Virus record (IMG/VR): IMGVR_UViG_3300003320_000620
Coordinates: 1 to 64,000 of that record
DNA from: a virus
Lineage: Duplodnaviria; Caudoviricetes
DNA: 64,000 nt
Direction: 5' to 3' (one strand)
Part shown: in pieces, positions 6,941 to 58,377 of the stretch
How the letters are laid out: each line of letters starts with the position of its first letter
Numbering within the stretch: the first letter of the stretch is position 1
Made by a program: the position numbers and the translations under genes
Notes under the pieces: model-generated
The model's database searches: none
The model's input: only the letters and a program-made list of their open reading frames with translations
Told to the model about the DNA's origin: nothing

Positions 6941-6942
6941 GC

Positions 6943-39431: not shown

Positions 39432-40250
39432 ATGCGTGTGTTAGTTACTGGCGGAACTGGAACTATTGGATCAGCCATTGTTAAGCATTTAATTTCAAAA
39501 CAACACGAAGTAGTTATTCTAAGCCGTGATGAATATAAGCAGCATAGGCTTAGGCAAGAAATAGGTGATAGTACCAAATTTATACTGGGCGATATCAGAT
39601 CTTACGACACTCTATTAGACGCAATGGCTGGAGTAGATAAGTGCTTTCACGTAGCAGCCATGAAGCATGTTTCCCTTTGTGAAGAAAATCCCTATGAAGC
39701 GGTCCAAACCAACGTGATTGGAACTAAAAACGTAATAAGGACAGCAAAAGAACGATTGGTGTCAAAGGTGTTGGCAATATCTACAGATAAGGCAGTCAAC
39801 CCCATTTCAGTCCTTGGTGGAACCAAGTTTATTATGGAGAAATTGCTTAAGGCTGAAAAAAACGAACCACCATTCGTAACCAAATTTGCATCAATCCGCT
39901 TTGGTAATATTTTTGATTCGCGTGGATCAGTTTTTGATGTTTGGAAACGCCAAGCGGCATTGGGTGAACCGATAACAATAACTGATTCTAGAGCTACAAG
40001 ATATTTCATATCAATAGATAAGGCTGTGTTTGCTGCCTATAAAGCGATGCTTGCTTTTCAGGGTGGGGAAACCTTTATTGTTGATTGTGGTGATCCAGTT
40101 AACATCTCTGGTTTGGCTCATAAGCTTTATCCTGAAGAAGGAAGGACATTTGTTTATTCTGGGTTAAAAGCAGGCGAGCGTCTTCATGAAGAATTATTTT
40201 CTTCAAACGAAACACCAGAATTTGGCCCCGAAGGGTTGATGGTAGTCTAA
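39432..40250 (+). CDS. NDP-GlcNAc 4,6-dehydratase (PglF/PseB/LegB-like, Polysacc_synt_2 type)
   Basis: TGGTGTIG, SRDEYKQ, AAMKHV..CEENP.EAV.TNVIGT, STDKAVNP..LGGTK and RFGNI.DSRGSV. Confidence 0.9.
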   Translation: MRVLVTGGTGTIGSAIVKHLISKQHEVVILSRDEYKQHRLRQEIGDSTKFILGDIRSYDTLLDAMAGVDKCFHVAAMKHVSLCEENPYEAVQTNVIGTKNVIRTAKERLVSKVLAISTDKAVNPISVLGGTKFIMEKLLKAEKNEPPFVTKFASIRFGNIFDSRGSVFDVWKRQAALGEPITITDSRATRYFISIDKAVFAAYKAMLAFQGGETFIVDCGDPVNISGLAHKLYPEEGRTFVYSGLKAGERLHEELFSSNETPEFGPEGLMVV

Positions 40251-42978
40251 ATGGCCATTGAACTTGACGAGCTGGCAGGCCCAGACGGTGGTGAAGAGAG
40301 CAGGAAGCTAGCCAAGCACTGGATAGAACAGTTGTCCATGATTAAGGACAATGGCGACAATAAACGTTGGGTTAAACGTGGTGAGGATATTGAAAAGCGT
40401 TATAGGGACGAACGCAGTCGCAGTGACGAGCAAGGTCAGCGCCGCTACAACGCCCTATGGTCCAATGTTCAGATCCTTAAGCCCGCCTTGTTTGGCAAGG
40501 TGCCAATCCCAATTTGTGAGCGGCGTTTCAAAGACAAAGACCCGGTTGGCCGGGGCGCTGCTCAAATGCTTGAGCGTGCTCTAAGGAATGAGATAGAAGT
40601 TTGTGGCTTTGGGGACTCACTAAGCAGGGCCGTTGATGACTATCTTCTTCCTGGTCGTGGTGTGGTTTGGGTACGCTATGAGCCTGAATTTTCAGAAAGT
40701 ATTTCACTTCCTGTTGAGCAGGAAACTGATATTGACGCCAAAATAGGCCAAAGAGCCGTTGGCAAAAATGATGACGATGAAGATCATGATGACGGTCCTG
40801 CATCTGAGGAAGGAAAGCAAGAAGATTACAATGAAGAGGGTGAGGCTCATGAGCCACATGAACAAGCTAATGAAGAAAAGCTTCAAAGTACAGGCGATAG
40901 AATTATCAGGGAATCTACCCCTGTAGATTACATTCCCTGGAAAGACTTCATAACCTTTCCGGCTCAAGCGCGAACATGGCCTGAAGTTACCGCTATTGGC
41001 AAGCGCGTTTACATGTCGCGCAGCCAAATGAAGAAACGGTTTGGAAAGAGGATCGGCAGTGCTATTCCCTTACAGCGTGACGACCGTGGTCCTAAAACCC
41101 AAAACGCAAGCGTTGTCGTATCATCAGACCAAGACAAAGGTATCATCTACGAAATATGGTCGATTGACCACATGGCGGTTTTTTGGGTGGCTGAGGGCTA
41201 TGATTATCTTTGTGATCGCAAAGACGACCCACTAGAATTGGAAAACTTTTGGCCAGTTCCACGACCACTCTTCGCTAATTCCACCAACAACACTTTGATA
41301 CCAGTCCCTGACTATATTCAGTATCAGGATCAGGCAATTCAGATTGATGAATTAACGCAACGCATTGCTATGCTGGCAAAGGCTTGTAAGGTTGCTGGTG
41401 TCTATAATGCCGCAGCCAAAGAAATTAAGCGCGTCTTTAACGAATCCTTAGAGAACGAACTCATACCAGTTGACGATTGGGCTGCTTTTGCTCAAGAGGG
41501 TCAAGGTGTGGCTGGAAATATCAGCCTAATGCCCATCAAGGATATTATGGGTGTTCTAAATGAGCTTATTACAGTTAGGAAGTTGGCTATTGAAGATATG
41601 GATCGTCTTACTGGTATCAACGATATTATGCGTGGCACTAGTGACGCGCGTGAAACTTTGGGTGGGGTGCGACTTAAACAAAATTCAACAGGCACTAGAA
41701 TTACTGCACGACAAAATGAAGTAGCTAGGTTTGCTAGAGACATAGTTCGTATTATGGCGGACATCATGTGTCGTCATTTCAGTCCTCAATCGCTAATTGA
41801 GGCCTCAGGTGCCCTTTACGAAGAAGGGCTTGGGCCTGAAGATATGCCTGATTTGACAGAATTGCAGCCGCCAGAACAGCAGCAAATGCCGCCACAGGGA
41901 CAGAAACCGCTTGGTCTTCTGTCATCACAGGCTCAGCCAAATGTTTCCTCAGCCCCAGCCGGTTCCTAATCAGGGGCCAATGCCCCCTCAAATGCCGCCG
42001 TCTGGCCCTCCACAGGGGATGCAGCCGCCAATGGGCGGGCAGCAGCCTCTAAATGGCCAGATTTTGCCACCTCAGCAGCAGATGCCGCCTGAGATTATGG
42101 CAAAAATGAAGGCCTTTGAGCGGATTGGCAACGCTATAGAACTACTTAGAGATGAAAAACTTCGCGGATTTCGCGTAGATATTGAAGTAGATTCTACAAT
42201 TTTCCCAGATGCGGCCCAAGAGAAGGCAGATAGGACAGAATTTATCACTGCTACAACCAAATTTCTTGAGACTGCAATGCAGATGGGCTCAGTAATGCCC
42301 GAATCTATCCCACTTTTGGGCAAAATGCTGCAATTTGGCGTTAGGGGCTACCGTGTAGGCCGTGATCTTGAGGCTTCAATTGAAGAATTCACTGATGAAG
42401 CCATAAGAGCAGCCAAAAAGAAGCAAGAAAACGCTGCAACTGCCCAGAATCCGGACATGATTAAGGCTCAGGCCGATGCAAAGAAGGCCGAAAGCCAATC
42501 TCAGGTTGCTCAGATCAAGGCACAGGCCGATATTGAGAAGATTAAGGCTGATCGTGAGAACCAGCAGCAAGAATCGGCTGCTGAAGTTGAACGACAACGC
42601 CTAGAAAATGAGGGTGAGAAGCAAAACGCCCAAATGGAATATATGTCTAAACAAATTGACATACAAATGAAAATGATGGAGAAGCAACTTCTTGAAATGA
42701 AGATGCAGATGGAAATGTTTAAGGCTCAGCATCAGACCAGACAGGGTCAACAGGAGATTGAGCAGCAAGACCGTGCTATGGCGCATGACGAACAAATGCA
42801 GCAGCAGCAAGCTGTGCAGCAGGAACGTCAATCTCAGCGTGACGCTCAAATGCAGGACCGACAGATGGCTATGCAGGAGCGTGATGCTATGTTCCAGGAG
42901 CGTCAGGCAAACCAAAAGATGCAGCAACAGGCTATGAAGCCCGTCCATTCCCCTAAACCAAACCCCATACAGCAGTAG
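40251..42978 (+). CDS. Portal protein, split by a +1 frameshift near 41940-41969
   Basis: ORF 40251..41969 is portal-like (GINDIMRG, RETLGG). The homology-type tail (ELLRDEKLRGFRVDIEVDSTI) continues in the +1 frame, 41911..42978. Confidence 0.85.
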
Positions 42979-42983
42979 CGTTC

Positions 42984-43295
42984 ATGTCAACTTATGTCTT
43001 ACGCAACGGTCGGCTTGTAAACAAAGAGCGAGCTCCACCTTTAATTGAAAGATTTGGCGACGCCCCTTATGTTGTCAGCGATTGCATGCCAGAAACAAGG
43101 CATATGGTGGATGGAAATTACTACACATCAAAAGCCAAGTTCCGTGAGGTAACTAGGGCAAATGGATGTGAAGAAGTAGGAACAGAAACAGCCTATATGC
43201 TGAAGCCACGGCAGAAAGTAAAGCTAGATCGTGGCAAAAGACGCGAAGACATAAAGAAAGCTATCTACACTCTCAGAAATGGTAAGCGGAGATAA
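42984..43295 (+). CDS. Hypothetical head-module protein
   Basis: DGNYYTSKAKFRE..RANGCEEVG pattern, located between portal and scaffold. Confidence 0.75.
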   Translation: MSTYVLRNGRLVNKERAPPLIERFGDAPYVVSDCMPETRHMVDGNYYTSKAKFREVTRANGCEEVGTETAYMLKPRQKVKLDRGKRREDIKKAIYTLRNGKRR

Positions 43296-43297
43296 GT

Positions 43298-44870: not shown

Positions 44871-47800
44871 ATGGCTTTTCCTAACCTATCAGAAATCGTT
44901 ACGACTACGCTGCGAAATCGCACAGGCGAGCTCGCAGATAATATGAGCCGTAACAACGCTGCGTTGCTTAGGCTTACTAAACGTGGTAGAAGTTGTACCT
45001 AAGGTTGCCACGTAACCCAGTGAATTCGGTGAAGGCTGAGATGCTAATACCGAGCCAAGATGCAAACGTATAGTGATTACAGTCACTAAAGGGTTGCATA
45101 AGGTGTAGAGACTAGGTAGCCCCGAAAGGGTGTTACCCACGAGCGCTGGGTGTTAGTATGGATGAAGTTCCTGGTATCTATGTTATAGAGTGTGTGCCAA
45201 CAGGTAGAGTTTATGTTGGATCTTCAGTAAAGCCACTGGCTAGAATCAAGTCTCACAAAAACTTGCTTAGCAAAGGTACCCATCGTAATGTTCATCTCCA
45301 AAGGGCTTGGGGTTTGCATGGCTCTAATTCCTTTACTTTCACGGTGGTACAACAGTGTGTTGCTGAAGAGCGCTTCAAAGTAGAACAGGAATGGATAACG
45401 AAGCTTCAAGCTACTGGTAAAAATGGGTTTAATATAGCGTTCCCTGTTGAACAAGTTCTGCCAAGTGAAAGGATGTCACAGGTAAGCCGTACTTCCTGGA
45501 AGGACAAGAAAACCAGAAAGAATAGGCATGCAGGCATACTTACAAAATGGCAAGACGATGCCTTTAGGGAAAGAAAGCTGCGCGATGGCCTAAAGGCTAG
45601 AGAAGCTTTAGCTAAAAAGCGGTTAGACCCAGAATGGCGTGCTCGGATTAGTGAAAAGACAAGTAAAACTATGAAGGAGCGTGCCAAGACTGAAGAAGGA
45701 TTAAAAGCTTTGCGTGTTGCAAGTAAGATTGCTCATATGCGCAGAGAAAATGATCCTGAATTCAAAGCAAAATGTGAAGCAGGCTTGAAGTATTCGAGTA
45801 CTAACAAAGAGATAGTCCGACCAGCAGCAAATAAAGAAGCTGCTGAAGTGATGGATAAAGAGCCGTCACGGTAACAACTAAGAACCTAAAGACGTTCTCA
45901 GGTGGGCGTACGATTGTTCAAGAGCTTGTAATGGGCTCATAGTATAGTAAGAGCTTACGGCTTCAGGATACTATGATATGCTGGTGAATTCGGAGAAAAC
46001 CCAATGCCCGGCCGAAAGGTGCGGAAGGGCAACCCCGAGCCAAGCAGGCAGTTTTATGCTGCCGGGCGTGTGTAACGATCATGAACCAGCCCCGGAAGGG
46101 AAGATATGATCTGTTCTGCATGGGAACATGCAGAGGCTGACAGAAATGATCAGCCCGGCTGTAAGGACAGTCAGTAACAACTAGAAATTATGCGAACAAT
46201 CAAACCTTCCAATGGTATTCAGGATATCAATCCTTGAATATCAGCCCGTCGCAGGTCTTCTCTGCGGCTGAGTACCCGATCCGTCAAGCAGCGGTGGCTG
46301 TCTCTATCTCTGGCCTAGAGGAACTCCAGAACAGTGGAGAGGAAGCCATAATCGACTTGCTGGAGAGTCGGATAATGAATGCGGAAGACACCTTCGATTT
46401 GAGGGCCGCTGCGTAGTTAAAAGGACGCAGATGGAATGCTGGTGAATTCGGTGGAAACCCAATGCCCGGTCTAGAGTTGATGCGGAAGGGTAATACCGAG
46501 CCAAGCAAGGAACTTACAAGTTCCTGGGCGTGTGTAACGAGCATGGACCAGCCCCGGAAGGGAAGATGTGCTCTGATCTGCATGGGAACATGCAGAGGTT
46601 GGCAGAAATGACCAACCCCTTAAGTTGAAACTTAAGAGTAACAAATTGTCATGAACGGTCTTTCGCAAGGGGTGTACGGCGACGGTACTGTGGCCAACTC
46701 AGTCGGCGGCCTCCAGTTGCTTGTTTCCAGCTCCCCGACCTCAGGTGTTGTTGGCGGCATTGACCGCTCGCAGTGGTCTTTCTGGCAGAACCAATCTTGG
46801 TCAGCCAGCACGAACGGCAGCACTACCCTCAGCTCGGCTACCATCATCCAAATGATGGATGCTCTGTGGGTTCAGCTGATCCGCGGCCGTGATTCGCCTG
46901 ATCTGATCATCGCAGACAACGTCTGCTACCGCTACTACCTGAATGCCCTCCAGGCCATTCAGCGCGTTACCCAGACTTCTTCGGCTCCTGATATGGCTGA
47001 GGCTGGCTTCCAGAGCCTCAAGTATATTACGGCCGATGTGGTGCTGGATGGTGGCTTCCAGGGATTCAGCACTGATCCGCTGCCTTCCCAGGTTTCTACT
47101 AGCTCGTCTGCTGTTGGCGGTGCGCCAAGTTCGACGATGTATTTCCTTAACGAGTCGGTGACGATTCACTAACTCATGGGGCTGTTAATCAGTAAGCGGA
47201 GGGTATGATCGTTTCTTGAGAGCTTTACACTTCAAATAAAGCTCTTCTCGATAAGCAAGGATTAAATCTCGGTCCTTGCGGTTGCTACCATCACCTCGAC
47301 CTGGAAAGTTATAGGGGTGTTGGTCAATGTGGTCACGAAGGGCTAGAACTAAATCTACCTCTTCACGTTTTACGATCACATAGGGTTGTATGCGTCGAAG
47401 GAAAGGGGCAACGCCTTGGTTGTGAATGCCCCAACAAAACTGGATACGATTCTTAGGGTTTCGCAAGTCATGTCGGTTTTGGTTCAAATGACCGCCAAAT
47501 TCATCATAAAGCATCTTTATGATGGGATAGTGTGTCATGCCAATTCCAACAGCGGGGTAATAGCCCACATGGCCTTTGCGAACCTTTTTGAAGATTCGAG
47601 CAAAGCCTTCGCCGTCAAACAAGCCAGCAACGTAACGATCATCCAAGACTCAACTCCGTCAGGGGTTAACAGAATGGCAGCGAATTCGGAGAAAACCCGA
47701 TGCCCGGCTCTAAATGAGTGCGGAAGGGCGACCCCGAGCCAAGCAAGCAGAGACAAACTGCTGGGCGTGTGTAACGAACATGTGCTGTCCTCGGAAGAGA

Positions 47801-48555
47801 AGATATGTTCTGAACTCTACAGGAATGTAGAGAAGTTGGCAGAAATGACCAACTCGGCTAATGTACTTATCACTTATAAGTATGTCAAGTCGGTAACAGA
47901 TTGCAATACGAAGTACATCCACTGGCGCCCTCATAGCCGCCGCAACATGGTCCCTCTTGATCCAGACCGCTTCTCGGTTAATAGTTGGCCGCATGCAAAG
48001 GCGACTTTGCATTGAAAATTGGGTGAATTGCTGGAACACCCCACTGGGGCAATCAGCAGCCAAGCTGCTTAGGAATAAGCAGAAGGTTCAACGACTAGGT
48101 AGAGTAATCCAGACCGGACGAAATACCCACGAGCGCCCAACACCTCTAGTAGGTGAAGATATAGTCTGAACTGTGCAGCAATGTGCAGAAGTGGCAAATA
48201 AAGAGTTGTCACGGTAACAAAAATGCAACCAAGACGCGATGGTAAGATTGATAGGATGGGCTGGGAATATGACCCTGAGCAATGCGTTAACTGAGAAGCG
48301 CCCTCAATATCTAAATTGAGGAAAACTGGGTGAAACGGAGAAAACCCTTATGGGGCAACTCCGTAGGAAGCTGGCAAGGGCATGGTTTGCCAGAACCTCT
48401 AGAGACTAGGTCCTGAGTCCCAACAATAATGGACCCACGAGCGCCCGGCACCGAAAGGTGATGAAATAGTCCGATCTGTGTAGCAATACGCAGAAGTGCA
48501 GGATAAAGAGCTTGCACGGTAACAGAATGTTCTTCAGGGGATCTTAGTGTCGTAA
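44871..48555 (+). CDS. Major capsid protein, 7 exons, 343 aa after splicing
   Basis: Exons: 44871-44987, 45883-45926, 46185-46393, 46649-47147, 47904-47978, 48226-48287, 48530-48555 (1032 nt, one open frame). Junctions read TKRG|NLKTFSGGRTIVQEL|NYANN...AEDTF|MNGLSQG...MYFL|NTKYIHW...DRFSV|NQDAMVRLIGWAGNMTLSNAF|LQGILVS. AAAGGAG SD upstream. Confidence 0.9.
44988..45882 (+). mobile_element. Group I intron 1 (895 nt) with GIY-YIG ORF
   Basis: Exon ends in U and intron ends in G. IGS AGGTT|GCCACG pairs with both exons (U.G at the splice site). Core motifs GAATTCGGTGAA, CCGAGCCAAG, AGAGACTAG and GATAGTCC. Confidence 0.9.
45158..45874 (+). CDS. Intron-encoded GIY-YIG homing endonuclease
   Basis: GIYVIECVPTGRVYVGSS...RIKSH...EQEWI...FN; its 3' end overlaps the intron core. 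Confidence 0.9.
   Translation: MDEVPGIYVIECVPTGRVYVGSSVKPLARIKSHKNLLSKGTHRNVHLQRAWGLHGSNSFTFTVVQQCVAEERFKVEQEWITKLQATGKNGFNIAFPVEQVLPSERMSQVSRTSWKDKKTRKNRHAGILTKWQDDAFRERKLRDGLKAREALAKKRLDPEWRARISEKTSKTMKERAKTEEGLKALRVASKIAHMRRENDPEFKAKCEAGLKYSSTNKEIVRPAANKEAAEVMDKEPSR
45927..46184 (+). mobile_element. Group I intron 2 (258 nt, no ORF)
   Basis: U|...G| boundaries, P1 GAGCU/GGCUC, core GGTGAATTCGG, CCGAGCCAAG, TGTAACGA, GAAGATATG. Confidence 0.85.
46394..46648 (+). mobile_element. Group I intron 3 (255 nt, no ORF)
   Basis: U|...G| boundaries, IGS TGA|GGG; core nearly identical to intron 2. Confidence 0.85.
47148..47903 (+). mobile_element. Group I intron 4 (756 nt) with antisense LAGLIDADG ORF
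   Basis: U|...G| boundaries; the core at about 47670-47903 is similar to introns 2 and 3. Confidence 0.85.
47185..47646 (-). CDS. Single-motif LAGLIDADG homing endonuclease, antisense within intron 4
   Basis: YVAGLFDGEGF motif, VKREEVDLVL and LKKR C-terminus typical of the family; GGAG SD on the minus strand. Confidence 0.9.
   Translation of the reverse strand: MDDRYVAGLFDGEGFARIFKKVRKGHVGYYPAVGIGMTHYPIIKMLYDEFGGHLNQNRHDLRNPKNRIQFCWGIHNQGVAPFLRRIQPYVIVKREEVDLVLALRDHIDQHPYNFPGRGDGSNRKDRDLILAYREELYLKCKALKKRSYPPLTD
47979..48225 (+). mobile_element. Group I intron 5 (247 nt, no ORF)
   Basis: IGS TTG|GCCG pairs with exon CGGU and with 3' exon CAA; AACGACTAG and GAAGATATAGTC. Confidence 0.9.
48288..48529 (+). 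mobile_element. Group I intron 6 (242 nt, no ORF)
   Basis: IGS GAA|GCGC pairs with exon GCGU and with 3' exon TTC; AGAGACTAG and GAAATAGTCC. Confidence 0.9.
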
Positions 48556-49834: not shown

Positions 49835-50506
49835 ATGGCTCAGCCTGTCTTCTATCAAACCGTAAATAACGTGGGCGTAGACCCTACTGTCTACTACGCC
49901 GTTTCGGCGTCTGTGACGCCTGAATACCCCGCACCACCGTTTCTTGTTGGTACCCGTGCCTTCGGAAGTGATGGTTCTGAGTTTGTCTTCGTTCAAGCTT
50001 CTACTACCATTAACCCTACTGACTTTGTAATGCTTAATATGGGTTCTACTGGTGGTGGTTCCTATCAGGCAAACTCCATAACCAATACGAACGTAGTAAG
50101 TTCTTTGGGGGTTGGACTTGCCTCTACCGGCCTTGTTCTGCGTCAATCAGTGACGTACATCCCTGCAGGTGCGTACTTTTGGGCGTGCACGAAAGGCCAA
50201 TATCTGCCTGCTACTACCTCTGCTGGCTTGGCCAGCAACGCTGGTGGTGTTGCTCTCTATACGTCGGCCACTGCCGGTGTGCTAACTTCGGTCACAACCA
50301 GCTCTTCTACAGCAGCTGCTCTTGCAGGCATCATCTGCATCAACTCACTGACGGTTAGCATTCCGTCATCTATTGTACCCGGTGCTGGTGCTACAGCGTC
50401 CAATGGCTACACGGTTGGCCCAGTTGTCAACCTTAACAGCCCCCGAACCATAGTGCTGACGTCCTTGACGTTTGCTACTCTGTCCTTACCTGTGTTTTCG
50501 TTCTAA
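49835..50506 (+). CDS. Capsid decoration/cement protein (probable)
   Basis: Follows the capsid gene; GTRAFGSDGSEFVFVQA pattern; S/T/A/G-rich. Confidence 0.65.
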   Translation: MAQPVFYQTVNNVGVDPTVYYAVSASVTPEYPAPPFLVGTRAFGSDGSEFVFVQASTTINPTDFVMLNMGSTGGGSYQANSITNTNVVSSLGVGLASTGLVLRQSVTYIPAGAYFWACTKGQYLPATTSAGLASNAGGVALYTSATAGVLTSVTTSSSTAAALAGIICINSLTVSIPSSIVPGAGATASNGYTVGPVVNLNSPRTIVLTSLTFATLSLPVFSF

Positions 50507-50515
50507 ACACGACGA

Positions 50516-50539
50516 AGGGAAGGGAGAAATCCCTTCCCT
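50516..50539 (+). terminator. Hairpin after the head genes
   Basis: AGGGAAGGGA-GAAA-TCCCTTCCCT; the U-tract is weak. Confidence 0.55.
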
Positions 50540-50580
50540 CTAACAAGAGGGAAAAATGGCTGCTGCTATCTGGATAAGGG

Positions 50581-51525
50581 GTGGTAATTGAAATGGTTGC
50601 TGAAGTACCAAATCTTTATGCTGGTGAGTCGGCAAATCTTCCTCCAATAACCGTTTATGATGAAACTGGTGAAGATCCAGTTAAGCATCCAATAAAATTT
50701 AAGCTGAAAAGGCCAGATGGAGCTGATGGTGTTGAGAGGGATCAAACGCATGATGCTGCAAGTCACATGCGTTATGCAGCCACGCTCGGCTTACCAGAAC
50801 TAACCAAGCGTCAAGTTCCACGGTTAGGAAGGGCTGTAATTGTTGGAGGTGGCCCTTCCATAAAAGGTGAGATTGAAACAATACGATCTTTAGCTGCCGA
50901 TAAGAACAATGCTGTTTTTGCAGTAAATTGGACGCACACGTGGTTGTTACAAAACGGCATAACGCCTAGGGGATGCGTCTTTTTTGAAATAGACGCAGAG
51001 CCTGACACTGTTCTGGAATCGGCTCATCCAGATGTTACCTATTTCATCTGTTCCCACTGTCACGAAAAAACATTCGACATGCTTGCAGGAAAAAAGCGTG
51101 TCTTATGGCACTCACCACCAAATTCTGATCCTGAAAGGGTGGTCGCTGAGGAACTGTTTCAAAGTTCTGAGCATGTAGGTGGAGGGATCAGCACCTTCAC
51201 ACGCACAATGTCCATTGCTCTGTACCTCGGGTACAGGCATTTTGACCTTTTTGGTTGTGACAGTAGCTTTCCTGAAGAAGAGGGAACTCATGTTGACGGC
51301 TACCAGACTGTTATGGATGCAAAAGTGGATGGGATGTTTGTTTACGCTAGGTCCCTCACCACTGGGCAGGTAAGACGTTTTAGAACTTTGGGGTATCTAG
51401 CTCTTCAGGCAGAAGAGTTCAAAATCTATTGTGAGCAGAACCATCAACACTTTTCATTAAGAGTCTATGGGGATACCTTGCTTCGTTATATTCACAAAGA
51501 AACTTACCCAGATCAATATGAGTGA
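50581..51525 (+). CDS. Maf-type (DUF115/MptE-like) glycosyltransferase 1
   Basis: AVIVGGGPSI, VFAVN...LLQNGITP and ALYLGYRHFDLFGCDSSF match the Maf/DUF115 signature. Confidence 0.75.
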   Translation: MVIEMVAEVPNLYAGESANLPPITVYDETGEDPVKHPIKFKLKRPDGADGVERDQTHDAASHMRYAATLGLPELTKRQVPRLGRAVIVGGGPSIKGEIETIRSLAADKNNAVFAVNWTHTWLLQNGITPRGCVFFEIDAEPDTVLESAHPDVTYFICSHCHEKTFDMLAGKKRVLWHSPPNSDPERVVAEELFQSSEHVGGGISTFTRTMSIALYLGYRHFDLFGCDSSFPEEEGTHVDGYQTVMDAKVDGMFVYARSLTTGQVRRFRTLGYLALQAEEFKIYCEQNHQHFSLRVYGDTLLRYIHKETYPDQYE

Positions 51526-52342
51526 AGTTCAGCCTGTAAGATTCTTTAAGATAAATGCAGCATCCAAATTACCAGACGATATATTTGACAATCTGGTTGC
51601 TGCATCAAAACTTCCAATTTTGCATCTTAGGCAATTTCCCGAACACTCAGGAAGGGCTGTAATTGTTGGCGGTGCCCCCAGCGTTGAAAAATATTATCCA
51701 CGCATTTGGCAGCTTATGGCCAACAAGAAGAAAAGCACGCTCTTCTCAATAAATTGCATGCACCGTTGGCTTGTTGAGCGTAATCTAAGGCCCAATATCC
51801 ATGTTGTCTTTGAAGAGGATATTGATCCTACTGTTGTGATAGGGAAGCCGTGCCATAAGACAGCTTACTACATAAGCTCACACTGTCCTCCAAAGCTTTT
51901 TGACTACTTCAAGGGGCACAAAACCGTACTTTGGCATTTCTATGCTGAGGAGCTTAAGTACCAGTCAGCCATAGCTGCCTTATTTCCAAGTGAGCCGATG
52001 ATTGCTGGTGGCTACACCACGCTTTTTCGCGCCATAAACATAGCTATTGTGCTGGGCTACAGGAAATTTGATCTTTTTGGAGTTGATAGTTCCTTTGAAA
52101 ATGATGATAATCAGCACATAGAGGGATACCCTACAAAGCCAAGCAACGTAGGTTTGGCTGATGTGTGGTGGGGCGAGCGTAAGTTTAGAACTACTGGCGC
52201 GCTTGCGTTTCAGGCCGAGATGATTCGGCGCTTTTGTAAAGAAAACAGAGGTAAAATTCAATTCAGCGTATATGGCAGTGGATTGCTGCCGTACATGCTC
52301 GAAACTGAACCAAAGGAGGTTCAAAGTGAATCTAGCAAGTAA
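51517..52342 (+). CDS. Maf-type (DUF115/MptE-like) glycosyltransferase 2
   Basis: AVIVGGAPSV, LFSIN..H.WL and AIVLGYRKFDLFGVDSSF; paralog of the upstream gene. Likely start MSEVQP. Confidence 0.75.
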
Positions 52343-52721
52343 CCTTATGGGCTTCGGCATGCCGCCGTTGCTGGCTCAGGAAATTGGGACCGTAGGCTCC
52401 CTAACCATTACTGCAGCTGGCACTTCGTATACCGCATCTACCAAAATTGGTGCGAACCAGTATGTCGTAAGCTGCAGTAATGGTGACAGCACCAAATCTG
52501 TCGGCTTGCCGACAATTGGTGGTGACAGTGGCGCATCGCCTGCTGATGACTTTTGGATCAACAACGCAGGTACCGATTCTTTCGTTCTGCGTGCCTCAAC
52601 TGGTGTTCTGCTCAGTGCAGGTGGCACTTCCGGTGACAGCAAGATTGTTATTGGCCCAGGCAGCACAATTCTTATGATGCCGGTGTCCTCTACACTTTGG
52701 ATGGGTTGCAAAGGCGGCTAA
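52326..52721 (+). CDS. Small virion structural protein (probable)
   Basis: GTG start after GGAGG (MNLASNLMGFGMPPLLA); G/S/T-rich beta protein. Confidence 0.6.
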   Translation: MNLASNLMGFGMPPLLAQEIGTVGSLTITAAGTSYTASTKIGANQYVVSCSNGDSTKSVGLPTIGGDSGASPADDFWINNAGTDSFVLRASTGVLLSAGGTSGDSKIVIGPGSTILMMPVSSTLWMGCKGG

Positions 52722-52739: not shown

Positions 52740-53630
52740 GTGTGCGTGCTTAAGTTCCTTCACTCCAGTCAAACAGCCCAGTGGCGATCTTACCTATTCA
52801 GATTGCCGCCTGGGCTGTTAGACATTCACTTCTACCCTGAAATGGTGATGCCCTATGAGAAGGCCGGAATGGGTCAGGGCATGCTCGCTGTCATAGATCA
52901 GGGCAGAGATTTCTTAATTCAGCCTTTTTTGCAGCTAAATAATGGCGATGGAAACCTTCGCCATCCGTACAATTTTGGCGGACCTATAGCCACAGAAGAG
53001 TTTGAGCTTAAGAAAGTAAACGTAAATTCAATCTCTACTTTCAACCCATTTCTTTGGGTAAGACAACAACAGCTTGTCAAGCACAGAGCTGTACACATAA
53101 AGAACGTTGTTTGGATTGATCTAACAAAGCCCTTAGATTTAAGGCAGACAACAAGGCATTCAGTTGAAAAGGCTGAGGCGTCTGGAGTCACTGTAGAATT
53201 GGTTGAACCAACCAGCGAAAACATCGAGGTTTTCTCACGTCTTTACGTCGAACATATGCAAGCAGTGGATGCTGCAGAGCATTTTAGGTTTCCTAAGGTG
53301 TGGTTTGAGGCTTTTTTCAGCAGTCTAGGTAAGTCAATGTCATCTTTACTGTTTGCAAAGCATAAGGATGAAGTTGTAGGGGCCTGCATTCTGTTGCATG
53401 ACGACAACACCTGTTACTACCACTTCGCTGTCAGCAAAAGAACCCCTGTAGGCATTGCCGCACGTATGGTTGTCAGTGCAGTTGGTTTTGCTAAGGAAAA
53501 AAATCACTGCAGGCGTTTGCATCTAGGCGGCGGGGTTGAACCAACAGACGGTCTCTACAGGTTCAAAGCTGGATTCTCTGACCTGAGGGCGCCTGTCTTC
53601 AGACATGAGTGCAAAAGAAATGTCAATTGA
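52740..53630 (+). CDS. GNAT acyltransferase, FemAB-like
   Basis: YNFGGP, YYHFA and LHLGGG...LYRFKAGF motifs. Confidence 0.8.
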   Translation: MCVLKFLHSSQTAQWRSYLFRLPPGLLDIHFYPEMVMPYEKAGMGQGMLAVIDQGRDFLIQPFLQLNNGDGNLRHPYNFGGPIATEEFELKKVNVNSISTFNPFLWVRQQQLVKHRAVHIKNVVWIDLTKPLDLRQTTRHSVEKAEASGVTVELVEPTSENIEVFSRLYVEHMQAVDAAEHFRFPKVWFEAFFSSLGKSMSSLLFAKHKDEVVGACILLHDDNTCYYHFAVSKRTPVGIAARMVVSAVGFAKEKNHCRRLHLGGGVEPTDGLYRFKAGFSDLRAPVFRHECKRNVN

Positions 53631-54435
53631 AATCATCAGCGAAGCAGGTTTGAACCATCTAGGTAAATTGGATATTGCCAAACAGATGGTAGTGGCTGCT
53701 AAAGCAGCAGGCTCAGATATAGTAAAGTTCCAGACTTATTTAGCTAATAACATCTGCCATCCTGAAGATAGAAACTTCAAACTGCTTTGTGACCTCGCCC
53801 TATCAAGGGCAGAAACTATTCAATTGGCTAAATTCTGCGAAGGCACTGACATAGAATTTATGTCAACCCCAGGGGATGTAGATAGCCTTAAGTTTCTGAC
53901 GCAGGAAGTTGGGGTAAAAAGGATAAAGATAGGTTCTGATGACCTGACGTTCACACCTTTGCTTGTGGCAGCATCTGACAGCGGCCTTCCAATAATTCTC
54001 AGTACAGGAATGGCCAATATTGAAGAGATTGGGGGGGCGATTGCCGTTATTGGTGGGGTGGAGCTGACGCTTTTACACTGTGTCAGCCTCTACCCCTGCC
54101 ATTATTCTTTGGCCAATCTCAATGCAATTGACACACTACGTCAATTTGAGCTTCCTGTTGGCTATTCAGACCATGTACCAGGGTTCTGGGCTTGTGTTGC
54201 CGCAGTTTCTAAAGGCGTCACAGTCATAGAGAAACATTTCAAGCTGCGAAATGTGATTGGTTGTGTTGACGAGGTAGTTTCAATAAACGAACTTGAGCTA
54301 ATGAACATGATCAATCATATAAGAATGACCGAAGAAATGCTTGGAACTGGTAACAAAGAACCTTCTCCTGAGGAGGTCTTAAATATAAACAAGTTGCGTA
54401 AGCAGGCTGACGGGAAAAGAGGTATTCAGAAATGA
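53605..54435 (+). CDS. neuB: Nonulosonic acid synthase (NeuB/LegI/PseI family), lacking the C-terminal AFP-like domain
   Basis: ISEAGLNHLG, VKFQT, KIGSDD, ILSTGMA, LLHCVSLYP, GYSDH and IEKHF. Confidence 0.95.
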   Translation: MSAKEMSIEIISEAGLNHLGKLDIAKQMVVAAKAAGSDIVKFQTYLANNICHPEDRNFKLLCDLALSRAETIQLAKFCEGTDIEFMSTPGDVDSLKFLTQEVGVKRIKIGSDDLTFTPLLVAASDSGLPIILSTGMANIEEIGGAIAVIGGVELTLLHCVSLYPCHYSLANLNAIDTLRQFELPVGYSDHVPGFWACVAAVSKGVTVIEKHFKLRNVIGCVDEVVSINELELMNMINHIRMTEEMLGTGNKEPSPEEVLNINKLRKQADGKRGIQK

Positions 54436-55064
54436 CGGTTATGGGTTTGATCCCTGCACGCTATGGGTCTCAAAGGATTCCACGCAAAAACATCGCTGAC
54501 CTTGGCGGTATTCCGTTAATCCAGTGGACAATTAATGCTGCTAAAGCAAGTGGTATCTTTGATGTCTTAGCAATTAGCACTGACGACAGTGAAGTTGCTG
54601 AAATTGCGAAGCTAAACAACTGCCTGCTCATAGAACGGCCAAAGGAACTGGCTAGAGCTGAAACTGAGATGCTGCCAGTTGTCAAACATGCTAGAAAAGC
54701 TGTTCCTTTGGCTGAAGCAATAGTGCTTCTTCAGCCTACTTCGCCATTTAGAACAGCAGAAGATGTAAAGCTTTCCTACCAACAACTAAAAACCTATAAG
54801 GCAGATTCAATAGTGTCTGTTGTGTCTGCGCCTCAGGCTTTAGCCTTTGAGGTAGGCCACGCCCAAAGGCTCCGTGAAGCTAAGAACATTGTGGTGCCAA
54901 ACGGCGCCCTCTACCTGATAACCACAGAACATCTGGATTCTGGCGGCGATTGGTATGATGGCTATGCCTATGCGTATGTAATGCCAAAGGAACGTTCAAT
55001 TGATATTGACGTTCATTTCGATCTAGAAATGGCTAGATTGATGTTGGCACAGAGGGCTGCATGA
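54432..55064 (+). CDS. neuA: CMP-nonulosonate synthetase (NeuA/LegF family)
   Basis: LIPARYGSQRIPRKN, STDD, LLQPTSPFR, NGALY and SIDID. Confidence 0.95.
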   Translation: MTVMGLIPARYGSQRIPRKNIADLGGIPLIQWTINAAKASGIFDVLAISTDDSEVAEIAKLNNCLLIERPKELARAETEMLPVVKHARKAVPLAEAIVLLQPTSPFRTAEDVKLSYQQLKTYKADSIVSVVSAPQALAFEVGHAQRLREAKNIVVPNGALYLITTEHLDSGGDWYDGYAYAYVMPKERSIDIDVHFDLEMARLMLAQRAA

Positions 55065-55606
55065 GAGTTCTTGTAGCTTGTGAATTTAGTGGAAGAGTTA
55101 GAGATGCTTTTATAGCAAGAGGACATGAAGCCGTATCATGTGACTTACTACCTTCAGAATCTGAAGGCCCGCATTACCAGTGTGATGTAAGAGACGTTTT
55201 AGATGAGAAATGGGATTTGATGATTTGTCATCCACCATGCACTTATTTGGCTGTTTCGGGAGCGAGGTGGTTTAAGTTTAGGCAAGATGAGCAATGTCGG
55301 GCTCTGGACTTTGTGAAGTTGTTACTGACTGCAAAAGTTGAAAAAATTGCCCTAGAAAACCCAATATCAATTATCTCTACAAGGATAAGAAAGCCAGATC
55401 AAATAGTACATCCGTGGATGTTTGGGCATGGTGAAACTAAAGCGACTTGCCTTTGGTTGAAGAATTTACCCTTGTTAAGGCCGACAAAAGTAGTTTCCGG
55501 CAGAGAACAAAAAGTTCATAGGATGCCCCCAAGTAAAGAACGGTGGAAGGATCGTTCAAGAACGTATGCTGGAATAGCTGAAGCTATGAGCATTCAATGG
55601 GGATAG
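55061..55606 (+). CDS. Short phage-type DNA C5-cytosine methyltransferase-like protein
   Basis: VLVACEFSG (SAM-binding), HPPCT (catalytic PC), ALENP and RSRTYAGIAEAM..QWG. Confidence 0.8.
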   Translation: MRVLVACEFSGRVRDAFIARGHEAVSCDLLPSESEGPHYQCDVRDVLDEKWDLMICHPPCTYLAVSGARWFKFRQDEQCRALDFVKLLLTAKVEKIALENPISIISTRIRKPDQIVHPWMFGHGETKATCLWLKNLPLLRPTKVVSGREQKVHRMPPSKERWKDRSRTYAGIAEAMSIQWG

Positions 55607-55607
55607 C

Positions 55608-56744
55608 ATGAGCGTTGAGAGCGTAGTAAAGACAATAAGCAGTGTCACCTTGGGGCCGAAAGGCCACCATGATCCTTCTTTTGGCGAACTTGAAAGCGAC
55701 TATGTTACCCGTTGTCTAAAGGCAAATGGACAGGGTGACTTTTGGCGCCTTAACCTAGAAAAGAAAATTGGTAATTATTGCCAAGTGCCTTTTGTTGTTC
55801 CAACAAATTCAGGAACAGCAGCCCTGCATGTTGGATTAGCAGCTGCAGGTGTAAAGCCTAACGAGGAAGTGCTTGTTCCAAGCCTTACTTTTGTTGGTAC
55901 GGCAAACGCTGTTTGCTATGTGGGCGCTATTCCTCATTTTATTGACTGTCTGCTAGTTCTTAGCGGGTATACATTAAGGAAATACCTAGAAAAAAACACA
56001 AAGCCAACTGAGGATGGTAGAGGACGGTTGAATCCTACAACAAATAGGGTAATATCAGCGGTCATAGCTGTTGATCTTTTGGGTTTTCCAGCAGAATTAA
56101 ACGAGCTTGAGGAAGTAGCTGAGGACTTTGGCCTTTGTTTGATTGAAGATGCAGCCCAAGCCTTCGGCTCATCTATTGGTGACCGCAAGTGCGGTAGCTT
56201 TGGGAAAGCTGCTATTTTAAGTTTCAATAGTAATAAGATTGTAACTGGACATGGTGGTGGTGCTCTACTGACCAAGGACGAATCTATAGCTGCTAGGGCC
56301 AGGGCCTTATCCAACACAGCACGAACTGACCACCCCTGGCGCATAGAACACGTAGAACTAGCCTTCAATTACAGAATGTCTTCATTAACTGCTGCTTTGA
56401 TTTGTGCTCAAATTGACCGGATTGATTCTTTTCTTGAGGCAAAGAAAATTATACTGGAAAAGTATGTAAACGCCTTAGTACATGAGAACGACGTTTCAGT
56501 TCTACGGTATGCCAACTCAATCTATAAGCCGAACTACTGGCTAGCCACAATCCTATCAAATTCAAGAAGCGAGTTGCTCAACTCCTTGCATAAGAAAGGA
56601 ATCAAGGCTAGGGCACTTTTCACGCCGCTGCACAGTCTCCCTGCTTTTGATGGTTTTCCTCATGAAGAGGATATGTGTGGTACCAAGTTTTGCTATAAGA
56701 ACTACGTGTGCTTACCTTCTGGTGTATCAATAGCATGGCAATAG
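55608..56744 (+). CDS. legC: PLP-dependent sugar aminotransferase (DegT family, LegC-like)
   Basis: N-terminal HDPSF (LegC HEPxF-like), NSGTAALH, IEDAAQAFGS, SFNSNKIVTGHGGG and FNYRMS. Confidence 0.85.
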   Translation: MSVESVVKTISSVTLGPKGHHDPSFGELESDYVTRCLKANGQGDFWRLNLEKKIGNYCQVPFVVPTNSGTAALHVGLAAAGVKPNEEVLVPSLTFVGTANAVCYVGAIPHFIDCLLVLSGYTLRKYLEKNTKPTEDGRGRLNPTTNRVISAVIAVDLLGFPAELNELEEVAEDFGLCLIEDAAQAFGSSIGDRKCGSFGKAAILSFNSNKIVTGHGGGALLTKDESIAARARALSNTARTDHPWRIEHVELAFNYRMSSLTAALICAQIDRIDSFLEAKKIILEKYVNALVHENDVSVLRYANSIYKPNYWLATILSNSRSELLNSLHKKGIKARALFTPLHSLPAFDGFPHEEDMCGTKFCYKNYVCLPSGVSIAWQ

Positions 56745-57766
56745 TGGTCGTTTCCGGCAGTAGAGCAGACAAAGGGCCTCTGTCACCTGTAGTAGCTGCT
56801 CTAAGGGCTCAGTGGTTGTTTCTAGAAACAGCTTACAATGCAGACGGGCATCAATGTGCTGTTTCGTGTAGTGTTGCTATGGCTCAAGCAGCCAATGCTT
56901 TCGACAAGCTAAAGCCAGAACTAGTCATACTTCTTGGTGACAGGTATGAAATTCTGGCTGCAGCTACAGCTGCTCATCTAATGAACATCCCAATAGCTCA
57001 TTTGAGTGGTGGGGACGTTACTGAAGGCTCACAAGACGATTCTATGCGGCATGCAATTACGAAATTGTCGCATCTTCATTTTGCTACTTGCTATCAAAGT
57101 GCGTCTAGAATCATAGCTATGGGGGAAGAACGCTGGCGTGTTTACGACGTAGGCTGCCCTGGCATTGACGGCCTGCTAAATACCGTTTTATTGGGTCGTG
57201 AAGCCACTCTACGTCAGCTTAATCTAGCTGAGCCTTACTACCTAGTGGCTTTTCAACCAGCCACCCTGCTGCCCGATCCAGCTGACGAGGCCAGGGCTTT
57301 AGTCAAAGCCCTGAAGTTCTTTCAAACTCCATGCATTTTTACTACCCTAAACACAGACATAGGCAGCCTTGATATTGAGGACCTTTTCAAGAGCTTTTGT
57401 AAGGAAGACGGCAAAAGCCAAATCTTGTCAATGTCTAGGCAGCTTTTCCTTTCAGCTATGAAACACAGTCATTTGATGATCGGGAATTCATCATCTGGCC
57501 TGTACGAAGCACCAACTCTACAAAAAGCTTTTGTCAATGTTGGCGTTAGACAGCAGGGTAGAACCAAGGCTAGATCAGTAATTGACTGCCCTGCTGAGAC
57601 AGCAGCTATCATCAAAGCTGTGCAACGAGCGTCGACTCTAGATTGTTCAAATGTTACGAACCCCTATGGTGATGGGAACACGGCAAAACGCATTGAGACA
57701 ATCATTAAGGCATTACCCGTAGATAAACAGCGCTTGTTGCATAAGAAATTAAGCTACGTTGCATGA
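56735..57766 (+). CDS. neuC: Hydrolysing NDP-GlcNAc-type 2-epimerase (NeuC/LegG family)
   Basis: SGSRAD, LLGDRYE, HLSGGDVTEGSQDDSMRHAITKLSHLHF, GNSSSG..EAP, NVGVRQQGR and YGDG. Confidence 0.95.
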   Translation: MAIVVVSGSRADKGPLSPVVAALRAQWLFLETAYNADGHQCAVSCSVAMAQAANAFDKLKPELVILLGDRYEILAAATAAHLMNIPIAHLSGGDVTEGSQDDSMRHAITKLSHLHFATCYQSASRIIAMGEERWRVYDVGCPGIDGLLNTVLLGREATLRQLNLAEPYYLVAFQPATLLPDPADEARALVKALKFFQTPCIFTTLNTDIGSLDIEDLFKSFCKEDGKSQILSMSRQLFLSAMKHSHLMIGNSSSGLYEAPTLQKAFVNVGVRQQGRTKARSVIDCPAETAAIIKAVQRASTLDCSNVTNPYGDGNTAKRIETIIKALPVDKQRLLHKKLSYVA

Positions 57767-58377
57767 ACATAATTTGGGATAAGGTTCATTCTGAACGGGA
57801 ATGGGGTATCTACCCAAACGAACATCTAGTCCGTTGGGCTTGTGGCAGGTTCAAGACAGGCGCTCAGCAAAAGGTACTAGATTTAGGTTGTGGTCAGGGG
57901 TCATCTACGTTGTTTTTGGCTAGAGAAGGTTTTGACGTCTCAGCCATAGATTTTAGCCATAACGCTGTTGCGAAATGTAACAAACGCTTAAGGGCAGAAA
58001 AGCTTAAAGCTCGTGTTTTTGTTGGCGAAATGATGCTGCTACCGTTTCAGAGCGGCTATTTCGACGGAGTTGTGGACGTTGTGTCTTCGGCTCATAATAC
58101 AAAGGCACACATAGAGCTTATCTACAAGGAAGCGGCTAGGGTACTGAAGGTAAACGGCACACTGTTCTTGATTACGCCAACCAACAGTTGCTCCAGGCGC
58201 CCTTTTATGGAATATGGTACGATCAGTTTCATGGAATCTGAGGAAATAAAGCATATCCTCGAAAAGAACTTTACGAATATAAAGATTCGCCATACATCTT
58301 ACGAAATTGATGATGGTTGCGAAGTCAGGAATTGGGTTGTAACTGCTGACCGCAAGGCGGCACAAGGAGAAGGTTAA
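57763..58377 (+). CDS. Class I SAM-dependent methyltransferase
   Basis: WGIYPNEHLVR and VLDLGCGQG, a type common in nonulosonate gene clusters. Confidence 0.9.
   Translation: MNIIWDKVHSEREWGIYPNEHLVRWACGRFKTGAQQKVLDLGCGQGSSTLFLAREGFDVSAIDFSHNAVAKCNKRLRAEKLKARVFVGEMMLLPFQSGYFDGVVDVVSSAHNTKAHIELIYKEAARVLKVNGTLFLITPTNSCSRRPFMEYGTISFMESEEIKHILEKNFTNIKIRHTSYEIDDGCEVRNWVVTADRKAAQGEG

Follow-up and report, generated by a model that had tools for sequence, protein, structure and literature searches.

The window analysed here is a 64-kb stretch of an 88,094-bp IMG/VR virus contig, about 97% complete, whose source is an uncultured phage. Among its capsid-to-neck genes lies a cassette of sugar genes and putative glycosyltransferase genes, bounded by the large terminase gene on one side and an SU10-type adaptor gene on the other, and interspersed with genes for the portal, the capsid, a cement-type decoration protein and two conserved head-neck proteins. 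All features given below are on the + strand, the cassette genes being co-directional with the late virion gene block.

The product of the large terminase gene (37782..39431; phrog_38, E 4e-92) is 53% identical to the TerL proteins of Microcystis phage Mwe-JY13 and Brucella phage Tb, and the stop of the gene adjoins the start of a dehydratase gene. The portal gene (40251..42978) spans two frames that overlap, 40251-41969 and 41911-42978, each matching phrog_12082; in a relative it is one 858-aa ORF. The major capsid gene (44871..48295; phrog_9953) has at least six exons and group I introns: Rfam Intron_gpI matches fall within it, and the intron-less 343-aa major capsid protein (MCP) of relative L022 aligns to six blocks at 79-100% identity. 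At the end of the slot, orf259 (58377..59156; phrog_20268) encodes a conserved head-neck protein found in nearly all of 80 related loci, with or without the cassette. The SU10-type head-to-tail adaptor (59348..60319) matches PF24175 with 31 bits and the tail protein family phrog_6013.

Neighbouring genes adjoin or overlap, stop to start, at 39431/39432, 40250/40251, 54432/54435, 55061/55064, 57763/57766 and 58374/58377, bearing out the interleaving and tight coupling with virion genes that a first-pass annotation had described. G+C is even over the whole region. No integrase was found in the phage genome, which makes lysogenic conversion unlikely, and the phage appears virulent.

Sugar-pathway genes

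Gene families were assigned by Pfam and NCBIfam profile searches, which recovered all genes named in the first-pass annotation at or close to where it had placed them. The first is a short (272 aa) UDP-GlcNAc 4,6-dehydratase of the Polysacc_synt_2 type (39432..40250; PF02719, 265 bits), by predicted function step one of the 5,7-diamino-nonulosonate route. It carries GGTGTIGS and STDKA motifs, and its nearest solved structures are 6BWC, 2GN4 (PseB) and 5BJU (PglF). The PseB model gives 221 bits, under its cut-off; further scores are 191 and 180 bits for PseB/Pen-type, 148 for PglF and 65 for the LegB model, and retention versus inversion is not readable from the sequence. The gene is missing in the complete relative G002 and is not kept across relatives.

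The FemAB-like GNAT (Acetyltransf_6; 52740..53630; PF13480, 30 bits) would N-acylate the 4-amino sugar. It is kept in all cassette-bearing relatives and is the cassette's sole acyltransferase. A hexapeptide-type acetyltransferase (LegH/PglD) is absent, PF00132 having no match anywhere in the phage genome, so that the N-acylation step depends on this atypical GNAT. Next come a nonulosonate synthase (NeuB/LegI-like) that lacks a SAF domain (53605..54435; PF03102, 210 bits), scoring 251 bits with NeuB_NnaB against 164 with PseI, and a CMP-nonulosonate synthetase (54432..55064; CTP_transf_3, PF02348, 82 bits), scoring 111 bits with the PseF model, under cut-off. Both enzymes match their Pfam families, although the equivalog models stay under cut-off. 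An inserted 181-aa ORF outside the pathway (55061..55606; phrog_757, E 3e-67) has no Pfam or NCBIfam match and is not found at the equivalent position in relatives L004, L006, L007 and L008.

The PLP aminotransferase (55608..56744; DegT, 229 bits) has LegC as its best family, with 334.8 bits for TIGR04181 (cut-off 420) against 187 for PseC. The hydrolysing UDP-sugar 2-epimerase of NeuC/LegG type (56708..57766; Epimerase_2, 210 bits) passes the NeuC_NnaA model TIGR03568 (303 bits; cut-off 235.9). Last is a SAM methyltransferase (57763..58377; Methyltransf_25 and Methyltransf_11), which probably modifies the sugar further; it is kept in L004, L006 and L007, and none was detected in L008. The cassette's Pfam matches included neither a membrane glycosyltransferase nor a flippase or polymerase.

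Because the NeuC equivalog passes its cut-off, the LegC family outscores PseC, and NeuB_NnaB outscores PseI, the pathway is predicted to be of legionaminic/neuraminic rather than pseudaminic type, an assignment to class only, as exact stereochemistry cannot be read from sequence. A pseudaminic pathway was considered for this cassette and rejected (PseI 164 below NeuB_NnaB 251; PseC 187 below LegC 335). Where the first-pass annotation had written of a complete nonulosonate module of legionaminic type, the type stands and completeness is inferred at the N-acylation step.

Putative mini-Maf transferases and candidate acceptors

Two paralogous genes encode what we call mini-Mafs, putative CMP-nonulosonate:protein O-glycosyltransferases of 314 and 291 aa. 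Maf1 (50581..51525) matches PF01973 (MptE-like/DUF115) with 59.9 bits and Maf2 (51467..52342) with 50.3 bits (cut-off 34.6). The more likely starts are the ATG at 50593 for Maf1 and, for Maf2, the ATG at 51518, which overlaps the Maf1 stop. The two proteins are 38% identical (E 5e-51). Maf2 is also found in L004 and in a JGI relative, and is not present in L006-L008.

A structure model of Maf1 (pLDDT 89.8) aligns to the Magnetospirillum Maf 5MU5 over 226 aa with Z 22.0 and rmsd 2.9, and a Foldseek search with the model gave E 2.5e-10. The second-best match is the MptE kinase 8SD5 (Z 14.8), and sialyltransferases score Z 8-10. The comparison was run on Maf1, the fold of Maf2 being taken from the 38% identity. 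As modelled, then, the DUF115 proteins are Maf-like by fold and not MptE-like, in agreement with the first-pass annotation, which had named MptE-type pterin kinases as a danger to its proposal.

The Maf1 model covers only residues 243-508 of 5MU5, and neither phage protein has the N- or the C-terminal domain found in flagellar Mafs; given these missing flanking domains, the mini-Mafs might need a partner or act on another substrate. Among cluster representatives, 117 of the best 150 have at most 360 aa. Flagellin is the sole proven Maf acceptor, and Maf enzymes modify Ser/Thr in the cytoplasm, prior to export (PMC7591256). The phage genome yielded no flagellin-like gene, with no Flagellin_N match at E up to 1.

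The gene 5' of Maf1 (49835..50506) encodes a 223-aa protein with 25% Ser+Thr that, by structure matches, is a capsid decoration (cement) protein and a candidate acceptor. Its AF2 model has pLDDT 70; phage capsid decoration or cement proteins account for all of its best 16 structural matches (Z 9.0 to 3.4), and the nearest named Atlas clusters are Phage_cement_2/3. The protein occurs in Maf-bearing and Maf-less relatives alike, with about 21% Ser+Thr whether Maf is present or absent, so that Ser/Thr richness, which the first-pass annotation had used to argue for virion acceptors, did not discriminate. A second candidate acceptor, 3' of Maf2, is the small Ser/Thr-rich head-neck protein of the orf149 family (52347..52721), recognized by homologues in relatives. 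These share an N-terminal motif, and their genes directly precede that of the adaptor whether or not the relative has Maf; the family is independent of Maf2 presence and falls in viral-only Atlas clusters.

The head-neck slot in related phages

The order MCP-decoration-Maf-(Maf2-orf149)-GNAT-NeuB-CMP-transferase-LegC-NeuC-methyltransferase-orf259-adaptor is repeated in assemblies made independently, whose proteins are 35-78% identical. In a 95-kb relative, orf259 and the adaptor gene interrupt the sugar genes. Distant relatives have one to three Maf genes amid the decoration, orf259, orf149 and adaptor genes and no sugar genes close by; all five complete genomes of this kind have NeuB elsewhere, and the copy in G003 is part of a pseudaminic-type cluster (PseI 386 bits, passing its cut-off). 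NeuB is present in 7/7 near-complete Maf-bearing genomes and in 0/5 Maf-less ones, these being related genomes and not independent events.

In the five complete Maf-less relatives neither NeuB nor PF01973 was found, and the slot holds a protein of ~480 aa that combines TPR repeats with a GT9-like (GT-B) region. Both of the architectures by which flagellin is known to receive nonulosonates are therefore represented in the lineage. Since NeuB is absent from these relatives, their donor sugar is probably different. The slot content among relatives is of three kinds: a Leg-type cassette, Maf alone with a pseudaminic-type cluster elsewhere, or the TPR and GT-B-like protein. Sugar genes relocate around the genome, the transferase gene keeps its place in the head-neck module, and comparative genomics ties the transferases to that module over the whole lineage.

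We see an even chance that these uncultured podovirus-like phages, which range over about 64-97 kb, maintain as a whole lineage a swappable slot for protein glycosylation from decoration to adaptor, filled either by mini-Maf with a phage-made legionaminic- or pseudaminic-type sugar or by a TPR and GT-B enzyme. If so, capsids would be coated with bacterial sialic-acid-like sugars by two enzyme classes known otherwise only for glycosylating flagellin, and the slot would be a natural system in which to study how phages change their surface chemistry.

Proposed modification and comparison with known systems

The nonulosonate enzymes together with two cut-down Maf copies suggest that the phage probably coats its own particle with sugar, and glycosylation of the particle by the cassette is the best reading, somewhat favoured on balance. 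Late in infection, UDP-GlcNAc would be converted to a CMP-activated 5,7-diamino nonulosonic acid of legionaminic type, through the 4,6-dehydratase, the LegC-type aminotransferase, N-acylation by the FemAB-like GNAT, the NeuC-type hydrolysing 2-epimerase, the NeuB-type synthase and the CMP-transferase, in that order, with further modification of the sugar probably by the methyltransferase. The two stripped-down cytoplasmic Maf-type transferases would then O-link the sugar to head-surface proteins during capsid assembly in the cytoplasm, the prime candidates being the decoration protein, the orf149 protein and the capsid protein.

Counted for virion glycosylation were the results obtained here on gene identities, the Maf-like fold, conserved gene placement and the pairing of Maf with NeuB, together with the TPR and GT-B-like protein that fills the slot of Maf-less relatives, the missing integrase, the mycobacteriophage precedent, and the cytoplasm as the site both of Maf action and of capsid assembly; the enzyme order, the exact sugar, transferase activity and the acceptor are predicted from these. 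Counted against it were flagellin as the only proven Maf acceptor, the missing Maf domains, the non-conserved dehydratase, the atypical GNAT, the equal Ser/Thr content of decoration proteins with or without Maf, and the lack of a link between orf149 and Maf2.

Alternatively, the cassette might modify a host protein or surface structure (flagellin, pilin, S-layer protein) during infection, excluding competing phages or changing cell behaviour. Its appeal is that Maf enzymes are proven on flagellin alone, and that a phage with no flagellin-like gene could conceivably use a host acceptor. We consider it unlikely: transferase genes stay among the structural genes lineage-wide while sugar genes move, and lie within the late, co-directional virion block; the phage Mafs are without the flanking domains of flagellar Mafs; there is no integrase; and in Maf-less relatives a different putative protein glycosyltransferase takes the slot.

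The phage might instead merely supply CMP-nonulosonate for host LPS or capsule synthesis, boosting or altering it as a form of auxiliary metabolism; the Maf-like proteins would then have another role or a non-protein acceptor. Phage-borne enzymes that alter nonulosonate-containing host capsules are known in Acinetobacter (PMC12053666, PMC6586298), and the dehydratase step of G002 is host-dependent, which suggests that the host already makes related sugars. The co-occurrence of Maf with NeuB, the lack of membrane glycosyltransferase, flippase and polymerase among the Pfam matches and the apparently virulent phage make this quite improbable.

A role of the DUF115 proteins as pterin diphosphokinases of MptE type, or as some other nucleotide-binding enzyme apart from the sugar pathway, would fit the name of the Pfam family (MptE-like) and the second place of MptE among structural matches, and is very improbable given the far better match to a Maf glycosyltransferase, the adjoining sugar rather than folate or pterin genes, and the strict co-occurrence with NeuB. 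Nothing was found to favour a chimeric assembly with bacterial LPS DNA in a phage contig, a danger the first-pass annotation had raised, and gene order shared by assemblies of independent origin (NCBI, Logan, JGI and IMG/VR), uniform G+C and cassette genes that abut or overlap structural genes leave it next to no probability.

The first-pass annotation knew of no described phage with such a module. We likewise found nothing homologous or comparable in 50,697 deposited phage genomes, and our literature search found no paper describing a nonulosonate/Maf sugar coat on the virion of any phage.

In the bacterial legionaminic pathway (Campylobacter LegB/C/H/G/I/F; the UDP-linked Lga route of Legionella and Acinetobacter), the NeuC/LegG epimerase, NeuB-type synthase and CMP-transferase are shared with the phage, whose aminotransferase scores best with the LegC family. 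The phage differs in its Polysacc_synt_2-type dehydratase, nearer PseB/Pen than PglF/LegB, in the FemAB-like GNAT that replaces a hexapeptide acetyltransferase, in the added methyltransferase, and in that most models fall under equivalog cut-offs. The archaeal 6-hydroxymethylpterin diphosphokinase MptE shares the Pfam family and a related Rossmann-like fold with the phage Mafs, but is clearly the weaker match, and the phage has no pterin or folate gene context.

Chloroviruses and mimiviruses encode sugar-nucleotide synthesis and transferases for glycosylation of their own capsids or fibrils. They are eukaryotic viruses with other sugars and enzymes, and we know of no Maf-type transferase among giant viruses. 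A precedent exists in mycobacteriophages, whose virion glycosylation is phage-encoded, with glycans on capsid and tail-tube subunits (Freeman et al. 2023, cited in PMC12619734), and as that citation presents them they too have transferase genes within or beside the structural module. The system outlined there uses ordinary glycosyltransferases and host nucleotide sugars, with neither a nonulosonate pathway nor a Maf-type enzyme, and its glycans are demonstrated experimentally, whereas those of our phage are predicted.

The Maf flagellin O-glycosyltransferases (Magnetospirillum magneticum 5MU5, Aeromonas caviae Maf1, Geobacillus Maf) and the phage Mafs have in common the PF01973 core with the central catalytic domain fold, an encoding position beside a CMP-nonulosonate pathway, and a soluble, cytoplasmic nature. 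The phage proteins, lacking both terminal domains, have about 290-310 aa rather than about 600-670 aa, show only 16-19% sequence identity to 5MU5, and are encoded in a phage head-neck module with no flagellin gene. The other known flagellin nonulosonate transferase is FlmG of Caulobacter, an N-terminal TPR domain joined to a C-terminal GT-B pseudaminyl/legionaminyl transferase (PMC7591256). The TPR and GT9-like protein, outside this window in Maf-less relatives without NeuB, is likened to it by architecture and not by homology.

Were particle glycosylation by the cassette true, it would give the first non-flagellin Maf acceptor, a minimal catalytic unit of about 290 aa of use in glyco-engineering, and a plausible role for more than a thousand clusters of short DUF115 proteins in metagenomes. 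It would also add to the ordinary sugars of virion glycosylation the sialic-acid-like ones, which serve bacteria in surface mimicry and immune evasion.

Late gene block and sugar cassette

The 88,094-bp IMG/VR virus record, whose first 64 kb form the window, is 97% complete by CheckV. G+C is even along the window (0.43-0.56) with no break at the sugar genes, and from ~29.8 kb on all genes lie on the plus strand in a single co-directional block. PHROGs and Pfam place in it the large terminase (37782-39431), the portal in two pieces (40251-42978), a fragment of the major head protein and an SU10-type adaptor (59348-60319). The phage is taken to be virulent and podovirus-like, since no tyrosine integrase was found in it, it encodes its own DnaB-like helicase and SbcCD-like nuclease, and several relatives have direct terminal repeats. 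Judged by these two structural genes, terminase and portal, the cultured phages nearest to it are those of Brucella, Bradyrhizobium, Myxococcus and Microcystis (30-53% identity), which is not decisive for the host, and the window has no tRNAs, which were sought as a host clue. Megablast of the region against deposited phages gave no match.

The late block is headed by a NusG/RfaH-like NGN-domain protein (29770-30252; PF02357, E 4e-11). Upstream of the terminase genes lies a sulfotransferase (35566-36402; PF13469, E 1e-17) that could sulfate a glycan or some other target. The two portal frames (40251-41969 and 41911-42978) overlap in a Gln/Pro-rich stretch, and a relative has a single 858-aa ORF; this could reflect an indel in the assembly, a genuinely split gene or programmed frameshifting. 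The major capsid gene (region 44871-48555) is in at least six exons (44871-44987, 45883-45927, 46186-46395, 46651-47151, 47905-47982 and 48227-48295), which match the intron-less 343-aa capsid protein of a related phage locus, L022, at 79-100% identity. In this gene Rfam gives five matches to group I introns, one over the gathering score. GIY-YIG ORFs lie at 45158-45874 and, free-standing, at 48602-49720.

All nine sugar and transferase genes named in the first-pass annotation were recovered by Pfam and NCBIfam profile searches: a dehydratase of the Polysacc_synt_2 type (39432-40250); two PF01973 proteins, both scoring over the curated cut-off, namely Maf1 (50581-51525, start probably the ATG at 50593) and Maf2 (51467-52342, start probably the ATG at 51518); a FemAB-like GNAT (Acetyltransf_6); NeuB; a CMP-transferase (CTP_transf_3); a DegT aminotransferase, best matched by the LegC family model; an Epimerase_2 protein exceeding the NeuC equivalog cut-off; and a class I SAM methyltransferase (to 58377). 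The cassette is truly interleaved with structural genes, and the tight coupling proposed earlier also stands: stop and start codons are shared or overlapping between the packed head-to-tail genes, including terminase, dehydratase and portal, and both orf259 (a head-neck protein, 58377-59156) and the adaptor are kept in nearly all relatives. Between the CMP-transferase and aminotransferase genes is a 181-aa ORF (55061-55606; phrog_757, annotated as DNA methyltransferase, E 3e-67) that is absent there in relatives, and is therefore an insertion, not a pathway step.

The legionaminic acid route proposed in the first-pass annotation is favored by profile scores, with two of its steps being atypical. 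The synthase scores 251 bits with the NeuB model versus 164 with PseI, the aminotransferase 335 bits with LegC versus 187 with PseC, and the enzyme removing UDP from the sugar is a NeuC-type hydrolysing 2-epimerase; together with the presence of a dehydratase and an aminotransferase, this gene content makes a legionaminic-type 5,7-diamino sugar a likelier product than pseudaminic or plain neuraminic acid. Among the Pfam matches of the cassette genes, none is typical of a PseG-type hydrolase. The first atypical step is the dehydratase, which is short (272 aa) and nearer to the inverting PseB/Pen enzymes than to PglF; it retains nucleotide-binding and STDKA motifs. The second is N-acylation: the whole genome has no hexapeptide acetyltransferase, and the sole candidate within the cassette is the conserved FemAB-like GNAT, which has no solved relatives at E 0.1 and might add a non-acetyl group. 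A second small GNAT (L002:2037-2483 in the rest of the record, genome 66037-66483; phrog_4470, PF13302 just under cut-off) lies past the end of the window among tail and lysis genes and could acylate the sugar too. Sequence does not reveal the stereochemistry of the sugar or its acyl and methyl decorations.

Head-module neighbours and candidate acceptors

Directly upstream of Maf1 is a 223-aa protein (49835-50506) with a predicted fold at pLDDT 70, whose 16 best hits by structure are without exception cement or decoration proteins of phage capsids (Z 9.0 down to 3.4), including those of FCWL1, Pam3, T1, XM1, HFTV1, E217 and P74-26 and the phi29 head-fibre base. The nearest named Atlas clusters are Phage_cement_2 and Phage_cement_3. 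Single matches are modest but consistent, and with a gene position typical for decoration genes the model is consistent with a decoration protein. After Maf2 comes the small protein orf149 (52347-52721), whose family is found immediately ahead of the adaptor gene in many relatives. A specific tie between Maf2 and orf149 was rejected, since relatives with one Maf or none also carry orf149 homologues ahead of the adaptor gene; paralogy of orf149 with the decoration protein was likewise rejected (BLASTP E 0.23).

A stable, G+C-rich hairpin of 11 bp (50515-50540) separates the decoration gene from Maf1 and lacks a coding-strand T-run. It may act in RNA stability or attenuation; more speculatively, it may hold enzyme expression below that of the abundant head proteins.

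We consider it fairly probable that the phage glycosylates its own head-surface proteins. Capsid assembly is cytoplasmic. Maf enzymes add sugar to Ser/Thr while their substrate is still in the cytoplasm and yet to be exported (PMC7591256). A virion-directed system would require a soluble transferase encoded among the head genes and co-expressed with the CMP-sugar supply. The earlier appeal to Ser/Thr richness of virion proteins does not help to pick out an acceptor, because this richness fails to separate Maf-bearing from Maf-less relatives: decoration protein Ser+Thr is ~21% whether relatives lack Maf (15), carry Maf only (7) or have the full cassette (2), and is uninformative as an acceptor marker, and the Ser-rich capsid loop is found in the Maf-less L022 too. 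Glycosylation of flagellin with nonulosonate by Maf or FlmG is already known, and modification of a host protein such as flagellin instead of the virion is conceivable, if rather unlikely; the phage itself encodes no flagellin-like domain. Somewhat less probable again is supply of the sugar for a host polysaccharide, for which phage genes altering host nonulosonate capsules offer a precedent (PMC12053666, PMC6586298). Self-glycosylation of head-surface proteins is the reading that we prefer.

Fold and family of the Maf-like proteins

Maf1 has 143 metagenomic homologues at 52-72% identity and is 38% identical to Maf2. Its model, built from an alignment of 43 sequences (Maf1 and 42 homologues), is confident (pLDDT 89.8). 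It matches the Maf glycosyltransferase of Magnetospirillum (5MU5) with Z 22.0 (rmsd 2.9 over 226 residues; Foldseek E 2.5e-10), the archaeal MptE kinase (8SD5) with Z 14.8 and sialyltransferases with Z 8-10; by sequence, 5MU5 is the sole significant solved relative. The first-pass annotation had allowed that these DUF115 proteins could be of MptE type, a reading to which the comparison of 5MU5 with 8SD5 leaves almost no weight. Since the Maf1 alignment spans only residues 243-508 of Maf, the phage proteins are, as modelled, its bare catalytic core.

An exhaustive profile search with a limit of E 1e-10 returned 1,334 cluster representatives, and 117 of the best 150 are of 360 aa or less; stand-alone mini-Mafs are therefore a large family, mostly unannotated. 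The IMG/VR scan with the single Maf1 sequence found nothing, and that with the Maf alignment two loci only. No cellular homologue of the Maf clade was found by a pattern scan of species-representative genomes, which depends on two short motifs and so carries little weight. The gene call P0243 (862 aa, on a 12.8-kb Logan contig) combines TPR, a GT9-like domain, an FkbM-type methyltransferase and a Maf domain 58% identical to Maf1; either a true fusion or read-through in gene calling may explain it.

The slot in related phages and known systems

Gene order is shared by the contigs with Maf1 homologues across assemblies from NCBI, Logan, JGI and IMG/VR, so that an assembly chimera, such as the mis-assembled LPS locus considered beforehand, can be dismissed for practical purposes. 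In a 95-kb relative, orf259, the adaptor gene and two more ORFs divide the sugar genes into two groups.

Scanning IMG/VR with the adaptor alignment gave 80 related loci, and a tblastn matrix assigned the slot between the decoration gene and orf259/adaptor to three states. State (a) is the full legionaminic-type cassette with one or two Mafs. State (b) has one to three distant Mafs (23-31% identity) between the decoration, orf259, orf149 and adaptor genes, with sugar genes absent from the locus; NeuB lies elsewhere in the genome in all five complete genomes tested. In one complete 66.5-kb genome (G003), a cluster remote from the head module (locus L097, G003:5000-24000, at 6509-13895) contains PseB, a PseC fragment, PseI over the equivalog cut-off, WbuX/WbuZ amidino-modification genes, a cytidylyltransferase and a Pse-associated methylase, a content indicative of a pseudaminic-type pathway. 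Both of its Maf genes remain between head and neck genes, and its synthase is only 30% identical to that of the window.

State (c) is a slot without Maf, and five complete genomes in this state have neither NeuB nor a PF01973 gene. A 463-523-aa protein with N-terminal TPR repeats fills the slot in 11 of 11 loci examined (L022:5937-7382, L021:6898-8337, L012:7437-8864 and eight further loci), and 10 of the 11 have a GT9-like (GT-B) match, weak but consistently placed. Further sugar enzymes sometimes lie beside it (DUF5672 and Glyco_trans_1_2 in L022; two SDR sugar enzymes and a GNAT in L032). Another putative protein glycosyltransferase thus occupies the slot where Maf is missing.

Maf and NeuB travel together, NeuB being found in 7/7 Maf-bearing versus 0/5 Maf-less near-complete genomes; as these genomes are related, the cases counted are not independent of one another. 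Regardless of the type of sugar and the location of its genes, the transferase gene keeps its place in the head-neck module. That the sugar pathway is of two different kinds, and that gene positions differ, speaks for this arrangement having been selected repeatedly.

Phage-encoded virion glycosylation is known from mycobacteriophages (Freeman et al. 2023, as cited in PMC12619734). A full-text literature search turned up no publication describing a Maf encoded by a phage or nonulosonate on a virion; tblastn of Maf1 against 50,697 deposited phage genomes found no homologue, and NeuB had three matches only among deposited phage genomes, all weak. The TPR and GT9-like slot protein of the Maf-less relatives is similar in architecture to FlmG, the other known flagellin nonulosonate transferase, which combines TPR and GT-B (PMC7591256).
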